Source of the DNA: Candidatus Bathyarchaeota archaeon
Lineage (GTDB): Archaea; Thermoproteota; Bathyarchaeia; Bathyarchaeales; Bathycorpusculaceae
Direction: 5' to 3'
Assembly (NCBI GenBank): GCA_963772455.1
Contig: CAVYXJ010000005.1
Location: forward strand, 32,001-96,000
DNA length: 64,000 nt
Part shown: in pieces, positions 19,340-50,497 of the stretch
How the letters are laid out: each line of letters begins with the position of its first letter
How positions within the stretch are numbered: the stretch's first letter is position 1
Program-made: the position numbers and the translations under genes
The notes under the pieces: generated by a model
What the model was told of the DNA's origin: nothing
Seen by the model: the letters and a program-made list of their open reading frames with translations, nothing else
Database searches by the model: none

Positions 19340-19445
19340 ACAAAATACAAAAAATCAATGAACTGCACAATTATGCATCGAAAGATTGGGCGTCAAAAAA
19401 AGAAATCTGATGCTAAGAAATTAGAAATATGGAAATTTAGGTTTC

Positions 19446-19745
19446 CTATCCTTTTGTAAGCACTATTTCAATTGTTGAAACCATTCGTGATCTAGTTTCG
19501 CCTTCTCTTGCCGGCATCTCTTCTGTACCTATCGCGATTTTGCTCACTTTGAGGTCTTTTAGGAAGCGATTTCTTGTTATTTCAGCTGCGTCAACTGCTG
19601 TAGTTATTGCTTGTCCTCTGGCCTTCAAAGTTATTTCTTTTGAATTGCTCGATGACATTCCTGTGATAATCGCTAGAACATAGTCCATGGGCATTTTATT
19701 TCCAATATATACAATTCCTGATCTTTCAGTCATTTCAATCACCAT
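19446..19745 (-). CDS. albA: DNA/RNA-binding protein Alba
   Basis: VYIGNK.PMDYV, LKARGQAI.TAVD.AEI, IGTEE, VSTIEI. Confidence 0.95.
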   Translation of the reverse strand: MVIEMTERSGIVYIGNKMPMDYVLAIITGMSSSNSKEITLKARGQAITTAVDAAEITRNRFLKDLKVSKIAIGTEEMPAREGETRSRMVSTIEIVLTKG

Positions 19746-19958
19746 TTCAACAAAACGTTATGCACTATACAATACAACATTACTTATAAGAACAATTAAA
19801 GAAATAGGCGCGTCCAGTTTTTAGTGTTATCAATAGTTGCTTCTTGAAATTGGTCTAAGGTTTTCGATTTTTAATTGTACCATATGATACACATATAGTA
19901 CAATTTGTGCCATAAATGTCGCAATATTTAATAGTTCGCATCCACAATCCAATATTTA

Positions 19959-20179
19959 CAGGCTGAGGAGCACGCTTTAAGATATGCGTTAAAGCAAAGG
20001 AGCGTATTAATTGAAACAGCTGAAAATTGATACGCGACTAATACCTTGCTTTAACGGGCTGGACATAACAGCGTTGCAAAGAAGCAATGAGCTCTATGGT
20101 CTAAACGGTGAAAGATCATTTAGCGATTAAGACATTGCTTTGATGGACCGAAACGCAGTTAAGGCTTAGACTCAGCCTG
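19959..20179 (+). ncRNA. Candidate ~220-nt structured RNA, divergent from alba
   Basis: Nested helices: 19959-67/20171-79, 19987-20000/20044-56, 20002-12/20025-35, 20067-75/20152-60, 20082-89/20133-40, 20101-09/20115-23; TTTAATA about 26-32 nt upstream. Confidence 0.65.
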
Positions 20180-20307
20180 CTCTAACTAATTCAACTAATC
20201 CTTCTTCTTCTACCAGACAAAAACAAACAATTAAAAGAAGACTTTGAAATCCTGCTACAACAACGCACCGATACTATGGGTATCAGTACCTAAAAAGTTA
20301 GTTTGCT

Positions 20308-20571
20308 TTATCTTAATTTAGACCGTTTTTGGTTTATTCTTTTCGTGAAACGTATCATGTATTTTTCTGCATCGATAGTTTTTGTTCGACTATCAATAAG
20401 CCCTTGTTTTTTTGCCTCAATCAAAGCTTGGTCAAAGGATAATGGTTGTGGATTAGCAGCTTTCTTTTTTGTTATAACTATCCAGATTTCATGATAAATT
20501 TCTTTGTTGTCCTCAAAAAATTGTTTAAGCATTGAAACGTTCTGAGGCTCAAAAGTTATTGATTCACCCAT
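20308..20571 (-). CDS. YdeI/OmpD-associated (bacteriocin-protection) N-terminal-like protein
   Basis: EIWIV..KK, A..EA...G.IDS, RFT.R pattern; start reassigned to ATG 20571. Confidence 0.65.
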   Translation of the reverse strand: MGESITFEPQNVSMLKQFFEDNKEIYHEIWIVITKKKAANPQPLSFDQALIEAKKQGLIDSRTKTIDAEKYMIRFTKRINQKRSKLR

Positions 20572-20599
20572 ACTGATTCCTTTTTTGCGGGCTGTTTGT

Positions 20600-20795
20600 C
20601 TCCCATGTGACCAAACGCTTAACTTCACTGTTGGGCGTTGCCCACCTTTGCTAAGTTCTCTCGGCACGGGAATTTTGCCCTTTGCCCCACCTGTTCCATA
20701 ATTGGGTAGAACTCGATCGTCATAGGCGCAAGATTTGTGTTTCTTACGTTCCTCTGTTGAGTCCGTCTTTATGGGTGCTCATTTTTGGTGAGGCG
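20600..20795 (-). ncRNA. Candidate multi-hairpin structured RNA or leader
   Basis: GC-enriched non-coding tract with four hairpins inside a closing CCCAT/ATGGG stem; wobble pairs are G-U only on the minus strand. Confidence 0.45.
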
Positions 20796-31327: not shown

Positions 31328-32548
31328 TCATTTCATAATTTCAGAGATTTTTTTAAAAGCCAAAACTAAAGGTACAATTGCTACAGAAATTGCTGCTGAA
31401 ACCAAGAAAGCCAACCCATTAAATCCAGCTGAAACGCCAATAGAAAATACAGTCGCAGCTAAAACAGGTGAAATGGTTTGCGCCAACCCAGCAATTGCCC
31501 AAGCAACACCTAATGCTCCACCTTGAGCGTTTTCAGGAGTATTTGTAGAAATCAAAGTGTTTAAAGTAACGATTTGTATTCCAAAACCAATGGAAATCAC
31601 CGCTGCAACCGCTAACATAACAGCGAAATTTGGTACAATCGACAAAGCTACAAGCCCAACTATCAAAAAAAGGATACCCAGCAATGTTATACTTAATCTG
31701 TTTAATCTCTTCCCAAGAATTGGCAAAAGGACTGCCTGAGTAAACACACTTATCCCACCGAAAAAAAAGAAAACCAGCCCCGTTTGAAATGCACCAAACC
31801 CAAAAACCGCCTGTAGCCAAGGCGACAAAGATGCCTGAAGAAAAACAAACGAAACAAAAAACAAGAAATAAATTGCCAACAACAAAACAATTTTCCGTTT
31901 CCTTAAAACACTTATTAAAGCGTCCAAAGAAACCACGGTTCTCTTTATGTTGAAACTAACTGGTTCAGGCAACAGAAAATAAGCTGAAACCAAGTTAGCA
32001 AAAGCCAGAGCTGAAGCCAAAAAAGAAGGCACACCGTAACCAAAAAGGCTGCTTAGAGTTCCACCAATTGCTGGACCCAAAATAAAAGCTAACCCTGCAG
32101 CAGCACCCAGAAGTCCCAAGTACCTTAACCTTTCATTTTTAGTAGTGAGGTCTGCAACGTAAGCTTGCGCAACTGGAACAGTAGCAGCGGTAGTTCCTGA
32201 TAGCATTCTACCCAAAAACATAAGCCAAATACCTTGGGACGCACCAAACAAGAAATAACTGAAGCTTGACACTGCCAACGCTGAAAGCAAAATTTTTCGG
32301 CGTCCATAGCGGTCGCTCAAACGTGCAAGAAGAGGGGTGAAAACAAAGGACATTAGGCTGTACGAAGCCAAAAGGACGCCATAAAGGAATGTAGAACCAC
32401 CAAGCGAAAGCACGTAGAAGTACAAGTAGGGCACGACAATGGCAAAACCCAAGTTATCGAGAAACACAACCGAAAACAAGATTGCAGAGACAGAACGGTT
32501 AACGGAAACTCCGCTAAATGCCTTATCATTGTTGGACAAAAAGTTCAC
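31328..32548 (-). CDS. MFS transporter (TetA/DHA1-like)
   Basis: LSDRYGRR motif A, GPAIGG motif C, 12 TMs. Confidence 0.9.
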   Translation of the reverse strand: MNFLSNNDKAFSGVSVNRSVSAILFSVVFLDNLGFAIVVPYLYFYVLSLGGSTFLYGVLLASYSLMSFVFTPLLARLSDRYGRRKILLSALAVSSFSYFLFGASQGIWLMFLGRMLSGTTAATVPVAQAYVADLTTKNERLRYLGLLGAAAGLAFILGPAIGGTLSSLFGYGVPSFLASALAFANLVSAYFLLPEPVSFNIKRTVVSLDALISVLRKRKIVLLLAIYFLFFVSFVFLQASLSPWLQAVFGFGAFQTGLVFFFFGGISVFTQAVLLPILGKRLNRLSITLLGILFLIVGLVALSIVPNFAVMLAVAAVISIGFGIQIVTLNTLISTNTPENAQGGALGVAWAIAGLAQTISPVLAATVFSIGVSAGFNGLAFLVSAAISVAIVPLVLAFKKISEIMK

Positions 32549-50410: not shown

Positions 50411-50497
50411 TGGCGCGGGATGTGGGAATTGAACCCACGCGGCCTTTCGACCACGGACTTAGCAGGCCCGCCCCATACCAGGCTTGGGGAATCCCGC
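50411..50497 (-). tRNA. tRNA-Ser(GCT), intron-less, CCA encoded
   Basis: GCGGGAT/ATCCCGC acceptor stem, anticodon loop CT-GCT-AA, long variable arm, GGTTCAATT T-loop, G discriminator. Confidence 0.95.

Follow-up and report, generated by a model that had tools for sequence, protein, structure and literature searches.

Which product is made from a short interval that lies between two minus-strand reading frames and appears to fold as an RNA on the plus strand? This question is raised by positions 19925-20214 of a 64,000-nt stretch of DNA (hereafter, the window) from a Candidatus Bathyarchaeota archaeon, which covers positions 32,001 to 96,000 of contig CAVYXJ010000005.1. Few uncultured archaea of soils and sediments are as widespread as the Bathyarchaeia, the RNA biology of which is barely known. 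The interval is bounded by an Alba gene (19446-19745; Pfam PF01918, E 1.1e-15) and by a 119-aa open reading frame (ORF; 20308-20667), for which no Pfam family was matched. An earlier note, made from the sequence alone, had proposed a linear, Y-shaped non-coding RNA of about 220 nt with paired ends, transcribed independently and possibly associated with the adjacent Alba protein. Our analysis indicates that the locus is very probably a stand-alone gene, the product of which is a circular structured RNA excised and closed by the tRNA-splicing enzymes.

A structured RNA whose ends are joined

We calculated the folding stability of positions 19959-20180 in comparison with dinucleotide-shuffled sequences. 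On the plus strand, the minimum free energy (MFE) was -74.6 kcal/mol (z = -6.06), and 0 of 200 shuffles were equally stable; the z-value of the minus strand was -4.43. Because many G-U pairs occur on the plus strand, a feature that the earlier note had pointed out and that recurs in 58 homologs, the RNA is assigned to this strand, to which all coordinates below refer unless stated otherwise. We also scored a hand-curated structure across these 58 homologs, which were aligned by a covariance model and to which the pairing percentages given below apply. In this alignment 91.8% of the cells were paired, as compared with 80.5% in shuffles. Changes on both sides were seen at 64 of the 76 hand-drawn pairs, and none of 500 shuffles reached any of the five measures used. 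When the partner columns were slid by 1-3 positions, pairing fell to 28-39%. RNAalifold listed 20 of 59 pairs as compensatory in a set of 13 sequences. Thus, the structured RNA is real: it folds beyond chance and shows compensatory changes across its homologs, in both respects as the earlier note had led us to expect. A coding gene was rejected, since the longest stop-free frames in the homologs vary between 30 and 75 codons and the substitutions follow a pattern of compensatory pairing.

At the base of this structure, we found a motif of the bulge-helix-bulge (BHB) type. The hBHBh' form, as defined in the available text of PMC7714728, consists of a 4-bp helix between two 3-nt bulges on opposite strands, with outer and inner helices of at least 2 bp. 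In the window, the outer helix (P1) is formed by CAGGCTGAG (19959-19967) and CTCAGCCTG (20171-20179), the central helix by GAGC (19968-19971) and GCTT (20164-20167), and the inner helix by CTT and AAG; the bulges are ACG (19972-19974) on the 5' side and AGA (20168-20170) on the 3' side. P1 showed compensatory changes at 9/9 pairs, with 97.6% of cells paired. The central helix was paired in 100% of cells, its variation across the 58 sequences being limited to G-U, G-C and A-U, and the inner helix was paired in 97.1%. In a first census, the 3' bulge was AGA in 61 of 64 sequences. Among 82 distinct family members, the 3-4-3 layout was present in 81 and the full hBHBh' in 76; the six exceptions to the latter were four members of one family with a 1-bp inner helix, one truncated match and one degenerate copy. 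The BHB census predicts cuts at C19973|G19974 and G20169|A20170, both of which fall after the second bulge nucleotide. The introns of tRNAs at position 37/38 are also cut after the second bulge nucleotide. The terminal stem CAGGCTGAG/CTCAGCCTG, which the earlier note had described as perfectly pairing ends, is indeed present; it is the outer BHB helix, both strands of which are removed, and does not belong to the mature RNA.

Next, we examined RNA data, namely the assembled contigs of four metatranscriptome runs (X15, X16, X17 and X19) from four studies, aligned on positions 19400-20700. These contigs come from relatives and show 88-100% identity to the window. Around the RNA, they covered 19974-20169 only; no conclusion follows from the bins without contig cover (19576-19971 and 20192-20543) taken alone. 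In X15, X16 and X19, a contig passes from position 20169 into letters starting with GCTTTAAG, the sequence that begins at 19974. In X17, position 19974 is preceded by the loose letters AACGCAGTTAAGGCTTAG, identical to 20152-20169. G20169 is joined to G19974 in the RNA, and these positions coincide with both cut sites predicted from the BHB. The transcript ends near 19959 and 20180 that the earlier note had anticipated were not seen; the contigs end at 19974 and 20169, joined to each other, so that in place of a linear Y-shaped RNA the runs show a permuted (circular) form of 196 nt (19974-20169). The 16-mer across the junction was not found in the DNA of the RNA gene in any of 120 genomes of the source genus. 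It occurred in one of the 120, at an unrelated place without a covariance-model match, and a reversed control also gave one match. Word depths reached ~957 in X16, which is not a measure of expression, and the runs with matches had small shares of sampled words (0.08-0.21).

The joined form also has a fold of its own. Folded as a 196-nt ring, the sequence had an MFE of -53.3 kcal/mol (z -4.41), with a helix and a tetraloop at the junction. In this helix (P2), GCTTTAA (19974-19980) pairs with TTAAGGC (20159-20165), and it is capped after ligation by the tetraloop TTAG (20166-20169). P2 was paired in 95.4% of cells, and three of its seven pairs were compensatory, for example from U-A to C-G. The circles predicted for the family fall into two size classes, of 106-111 nt in 26 sequences and of 192-205 nt in 54, and their predicted junction loops are UUAG in 61 cases, UCAG in 18 and UCUG in 1. 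Two other identities of the internal loop between P1 and P2 were considered. A sarcin-ricin-like docking loop, with a presumed resemblance to L1, a loop of the yybP-ykoY Mn riboswitch that is treated in PMC6754395, was dropped when the RNA contigs showed the loop to be a cut BHB. A kink-turn (K-turn) was dropped on the same evidence, and its register in the mature form is also rejected by the covariation of P2 (U-A to C-G).

With regard to the enzymes, the source genome carries two EndA-subunit genes (tRNA_int_endo, PF01974; 99.6 and 76.5 bits) and one RtcB gene (PF01139; 596 bits), and the matches to both families were over the cut-off. A heterodimeric splicing endonuclease is described as typical of the TACK group in the available text of PMC7714728. 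Excerpts of PMC12918454 report EndA, RtcB and circular rRNAs in the Bathyarchaeia, which shows that the BHB pathway operates in the class. We infer that cleavage is the work of EndA and ligation that of RtcB, and propose the following route. An archaeal promoter, the TATA-like box TTTAATA (19927-19933), would drive a primary transcript of ~225 nt. The ends of this transcript would pair as P1 and form, with the adjacent nucleotides, a canonical hBHBh', which the tRNA-splicing endonuclease, built of two EndA-type subunits, would cut at C19973|G19974 and G20169|A20170. An RtcB-type ligase would then join G20169 to G19974 and release the 196-nt circle, in which the BHB nucleotides would re-pair as P2 (19974-19980/20159-20165) with the UUAG tetraloop as a cap at the junction. 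We regard this biogenesis of the circle as well supported.

The signals around the gene agree with what the earlier note had described. The TTTAATA box precedes the first base of the terminal stem by ~28 nt, and an A/T box occupies the same alignment columns in 15/15 aligned homologs and is also present in one-module forms of the gene (described below). A pyrimidine-rich trailer (20180-20214) follows P1 and is, as judged from its sequence, a probable termination region; T-runs or pyrimidine tracts directly follow P1 in the homologs. The conserved distance of the box and the varying flanking genes support an independently transcribed non-coding RNA. As a further observation, several copies of the one-module, Bathyarchaeum-type gene (L216, L217, L220, L221 and L226) share a conserved GTGCTGAGAATAT-like motif between the TATA box and P1, which could be an operator or a leader element.

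Two homologous pseudoknotted modules

P2 would open into a three-way junction that carries two modules, and covariation was found in the helices of both. Module 1 (19981-20069) consists of a closing helix (19981-19986/20064-20069), a lower stem (19987-20000/20044-20056), an internal loop with GA (20000-20001) opposite GACTAATAC (20036-20044), an upper stem (20002-20012/20025-20035) and an apical loop (20013-20024). Module 2 (20071-20156) repeats this arrangement with the closing helix GCGTT/AACGC (20071-20075/20152-20156), a lower stem (20080-20088/20134-20142), GA (20089-20090) opposite GATTAAGAC (20125-20133), the upper stem GCTCTATGGTC/GATCATTTAGC (20091-20101/20114-20124) and the conserved, pseudoknot-forming 12-nt apical loop TAAACGGTGAAA (20102-20113). 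The two arms of the circle are thus homologous, with the same layout and the same loop motifs: a closing helix of 5-6 bp, a lower stem of ~10 bp, an internal loop, an 11-bp upper stem and a 12-nt apical loop. The internal loop is asymmetric and conserved, having GA on its 5' strand opposite G-N-N-W-A-A-R-A-C. The apical loop follows the pattern xAAA-NNNN-xGAA, and the four bases at its centre are paired with the stretch that immediately follows the lower stem on its 3' side.

These pseudoknots covary. Pseudoknot 1 (CAGC/GCTG; 20017-20020/20058-20061) was paired in 99.1% of cells, and two of its four pairs were changed on both sides, with CGGC/GCCG and UGGC/GCCA as examples. Pseudoknot 2 (CGGT/ACCG; 20106-20109/20147-20150) was paired in 99.5% of cells, and three of its four pairs were changed on both sides, as in one that is U-A in 25 sequences, C-G in 18 and U-G in 11. 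Because the apical loop reaches the foot of its own hairpin, the hairpin would have to bend back at the internal loop, and we infer such a fold-back in each module. Most helices that the earlier note had drawn in the arms were recovered: both helices of arm 1, the helix AAGCAAT/ATTGCTT of arm 2, which falls within 20080-20088/20134-20142, and the base helix AACAGCGTT/AACGCAGTT of arm 2 with respect to its core, GCGTT/AACGC. The third helix of arm 2, drawn as CTAAACGGT/ATCATTTAG, was in the wrong register, the family pairing GCTCTATGGTC with GATCATTTAGC instead. The two pseudoknots, the homology of the arms, and the BHB nature of the terminal stem and adjacent internal loop were absent from that description.

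We also compared the internal loop of the modules with known motifs. A simple K-turn has a 3-nt bulge followed by tandem G.A/A.G pairs, with GA on the other strand abutting the C helix. In the modules, the GA of the 5' strand abuts the upper stem; on the opposite strand, six nucleotides precede the GA and there is one extra C, and on inspection a simple K-turn was rejected. The loop may be a complex K-turn or a k-junction. An 11-nt tetraloop receptor and a UAA/GAN motif, both compared by eye, did not fit fully.

The number of modules varies. The common form outside the source genus has one module in a gene of 133-139 nt. In one genome (G013, L010:1504-1819, minus strand), module 1 is tandemly duplicated, giving three modules in a 316-nt gene, and two loci (L088 and L096) each have two pattern matches 90-95 nt apart, as three-module variants. 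Another locus holds a degenerate partial copy (L059:2979-3203, plus strand; 66.9 bits), which keeps module 1 and is without module 2 or a proper 3' half of the BHB. It lies ~1.25 kb from a full copy (L059:1501-1729, minus strand) and is possibly a decaying paralog.

Relation to known RNAs and possible function

We then asked which kind of RNA this is. Rfam 15 gave no match at the locus at gathering threshold; a permissive scan (E up to 10) returned only chance-level scores, the best of which were GOLLD with 15.9 bits (threshold 150) and narK with 11 (threshold 43.2). Five other homolog loci had no Rfam match at E<=1, and a permissive scan of a one-module form was also at chance level, including its hits to plant and animal miRNA models. 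These comparisons cover the unpermuted sequence. The sole gathering-level match in the window is an 84-nt tRNA on the minus strand (50414-50497; 49.9 bits).

Several known classes were rejected. RNase P RNA and the RNA of the signal recognition particle (SRP) are found elsewhere in the source genome, with 198 and 158 bits; the SRP RNA matches twice with the same score of 158.2 bits (G000:C2:8678-8992 and G000:C5:140801-141115), and one of the twins lies on a 9-kb contig and is possibly an assembly duplicate. H/ACA guide RNAs have a two-sided pseudouridylation pocket and an ACA box ~14-16 nt downstream. Here, the 5' side of the internal loop is limited to 1-2 nt and the closing helices take in the 'ACA' that follows the arms, so that an H/ACA guide was rejected; a C/D box guide was rejected for want of boxes. 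No description of this RNA was found in a full-text literature search, which did not extend to the supplements of the cited papers. The RNA represents a so far undescribed family, as the earlier note had proposed, and this family occurs in part of the uncultured Bathyarchaeia.

Some known RNAs share parts of this design. Thermoproteus tenax has a permuted circular SRP RNA (Plagens et al. 2015, eLife; PMC4731332, in part), in which ligation completes a terminal loop, as it does here. However, the T. tenax RNA is a rearranged copy of a universal RNA with the known partners SRP19 and SRP54, whereas the Bathyarchaeia RNA is without a known family, has an unpermuted gene and is modular (1-3 repeats); a canonical SRP RNA sits elsewhere in the source genome. 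Circular pre-16S and pre-23S rRNAs and circular 23S rRNA of archaea are formed through a leader-trailer BHB, EndA cleavage and RtcB ligation, according to excerpts of PMC12918454 and PMC7714728, but they are kilobase-sized and lie in rRNA loci, in contrast to an RNA of 106-205 nt with its own promoter and without rRNA similarity. Circular introns excised from tRNAs, like the BHB intron in a 5' untranslated region of Haloferax, have the same motif geometry, and their excised part circularises (PMC7714728 and PMC3326292, in part); the former article also deals with circRNA-seq and BHB introns in Haloferax. Our locus has no host gene. The 'exons' are a leader of ~15 nt and a short trailer, neither conserved in sequence, and the excised part carries all of the conservation. 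Finally, the circular C/D box and other non-coding RNAs of Sulfolobus, Pyrococcus and Thermococcus are likewise small and stable (PMC3326292 and PMC9014305, in part). They depend on the ATP-dependent RNA ligase Rnl according to the available text of PMC9014305, and no BHB was found reported for them in the accessible portions of these articles, whereas the Bathyarchaeia RNA is without C/D boxes.

With regard to function, we tentatively suggest that the circle serves as a nuclease-resistant scaffold or sponge, each module of which would bind one copy of a protein. We make this guess because the repeated, self-contained modules (1-3), the several gene copies and the nuclease-proof topology would fit it. 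A broader idea, which we hold to be rather doubtful, is that these circular RNA genes with pseudoknot modules represent a new kind of functional unit, namely aptamers or a ribozyme acting in trans, with the number of modules tuned by tandem duplication. If this were true, then BHB processing would be a general archaeal route to stable structured RNA machines, beyond the maturation of tRNA and rRNA.

A number of points weigh against this picture of the product and its role. The RNA evidence consists of assembled contigs of relatives (88-100% identity), which give the presence of the joined form and not the ratio of circular to linear RNA, the strand or the true ends, and DNA can occur in RNA libraries. 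There is no formal joint in the alignment table, because the letters of the relatives beside the junction are too diverged to align; the join was read from contig continuation and loose ends. The absence of the junction from DNA rests on assembled genomes, and the geometry of a cut after the second bulge nucleotide is taken over from tRNA introns. Nothing in the data bears on function, and no conserved partner gene was found. The patchy distribution (13 of the 79 class genera sampled) argues against an essential housekeeping role, and the internal loop of the modules fails the simple K-turn definition.

We also considered the possibility that each module is an aptamer and the circle a trans-acting sensor or buffer of a small molecule or metal ion, similar to a riboswitch without an expression platform. 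Compact pseudoknotted folds with invariant loops are typical of ligand-binding RNAs, and the modules have such a compact, pseudoknotted, folded-back shape with invariant A-rich loops. Tandem homologous domains are known in some riboswitches (PMC10702441, in part). However, there is no conserved downstream gene, no Rfam riboswitch match and no clue to a ligand from gene context, and we regard an aptamer as unlikely. A catalytic RNA, in which the modules would form active sites and circularity would stabilise them, seems to us quite unlikely. The unpaired nucleotides are highly conserved and the tertiary design is complex, as such an RNA would have them, yet there is no resemblance to known ribozyme families, and one to three modules fit a binding valency better than a single active site.

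Is the circle, then, the form that acts? A linear transcript of ~222 nt with P1 intact could instead be the functional species, the joined form being a minor by-product or a re-opened intermediate. In its favour, contigs cannot quantify the two forms, P1 is strongly maintained as a helix, and archaeal pre-rRNAs pass through circular intermediates according to excerpts of PMC12918454. However, P1 is kept only as pairing (9/9 pairs covary and the sequence is free), whereas the BHB nucleotides are nearly invariant; the contigs of all four runs pass from one cut site into the other; and P2, which covaries, is closed by a loop only after ligation. A functional linear form is thus very unlikely. Because conservation is concentrated in the circle and the sequence of P1 is free, the circle is probably the functional species.

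The locus offers a conserved, expressed and elaborately folded RNA that arises by an uncommon route, and a free-standing gene whose only product would be an excised, circularised 'intron'. To our knowledge, the BHB circles described so far comprise introns, intermediates of rRNA and a rearranged SRP RNA. The uses known for the tRNA-splicing pathway would be widened by a modular circular RNA that has a promoter of its own. Circular-RNA expression tools already borrow archaeal BHB motifs, and a compact natural scaffold of this kind (106-205 nt, with one to three pseudoknot domains that are each self-contained) would suit such tools as well as structural study. The role of stable archaeal circular non-coding RNAs also becomes directly testable, since the family is under well-defined sequence constraints and has several copies in Ca. 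Bathyarchaeum tardum, of which an enrichment culture exists.

Distribution and genomic context

By blastn, homologs with 71-93% identity were found in 11 of 24 genomes of the same genus and none in genomes of 16 other genera. We then used two covariance models, R1, built on 13 sequences, and R2, built from 25 one-module forms. Within the source genus, R1 found the RNA in 96 of 120 genomes, including 64 of the 73 of high quality, with 1-4 matches each. It matched 74 of 151 genomes (19 of 63 genera) in a sample of the order and 25 of 151 genomes (13 of 79 genera) in a sample of the class, where R2 returned the same 25. In a phylum sample, R2 matched 7 of 151 genomes, all from the source order, and none of those listed as 'same class' or 'same phylum'. 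A pattern scan covered each GTDB species with one genome. Among the 80 loci fetched from it, R1 matched 45 at E <= 1e-7, and these were all labelled Bathyarchaeia or Bathyarchaeota except four without a class and two others. The latter, L101 (a Limnocylindrales bacterium) and L107 (a metagenome-assembled genome of Methanolinea), carry the RNA with 221 and 55.7 bits and are likely binning errors. Pattern matches in Microcoleus, Alistipes and Acinetobacter were rejected as chance, since they had no covariance-model match. The homologs include Ca. Bathyarchaeum tardum M17C-01. As judged from these searches, the family occurs only in a patchy part of the Bathyarchaeia, with 1-5 copies per genome; the source genome has two, the second at G000:C12:49116-49347.

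The flanking genes change between loci (15 and 64 loci compared), and clustering of the ORFs around 64 loci gave only lineage-limited synteny. Four recurrent neighbour genes had no Pfam family. In 16 loci from two families (for example L074, L062 and L078), a distance of 13-71 nt separates the RNA gene from the 3' end of a convergent gene for an ATP-dependent DNA ligase, which was identified by eye from a KYDGER-type motif; in these loci, the RNA gene is downstream of a divergent ORF of ~215 aa without a Pfam family. At the Bathyarchaeum loci, the neighbours resemble HypE and HypD by eye.

This distribution bears on a selfish or mobile element, either a miniature inverted-repeat transposable element (MITE) or a free-standing, intron-derived BHB cassette without a cellular function. 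The 1-5 copies per genome, the patchy occurrence, the varied contexts and the tandem duplications of modules would be in line with it. However, the source genome has only two copies, each copy has its own TATA box, and there are no target-site duplications or terminal inverted repeats beyond P1. Moreover, purifying selection acts on helices and pseudoknots across order- and class-level divergence, and synteny is kept within families, including that beside the DNA ligase gene in the 16 loci. We therefore consider a mobile element extremely improbable, and a MITE in particular was rejected from the copy numbers (two in the source genome, 1-5 in relatives) and the absence of repeats flanking P1 in the aligned flanks. 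A cis-regulatory leader, or a ribonucleoprotein partner of the Alba gene that lies 213 nt upstream on the other strand, deserves hardly any credence, since an Alba-like ORF (99 aa) is upstream in only 3 of 64 loci, namely the window and its two closest relatives, against the expectation of the earlier note that homologs would lie near alba, and since the next plus-strand ORF is far away and the downstream genes differ or are convergent. The same comparison of downstream genes, in 15 and 64 loci, led us to reject a riboswitch or other cis-regulatory leader in general.

The window also contains a second conserved, expressed RNA candidate adjoining the gene, on the minus strand at 20581-20790. 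In other genomes, this candidate and the circular RNA are unlinked. It had no Rfam match at E<=1, its single-sequence z-value was only -1.99, and it was found in 22 of 24 genomes of the same genus (71-99% identity) and in 0 of 16 other genera. Its indels are not multiples of three, it has an upstream TATA-like box, and compensatory changes occur at 5 of 52 predicted pairs. RNA contigs cover 20581-20700 and beyond with 99-100% identity.

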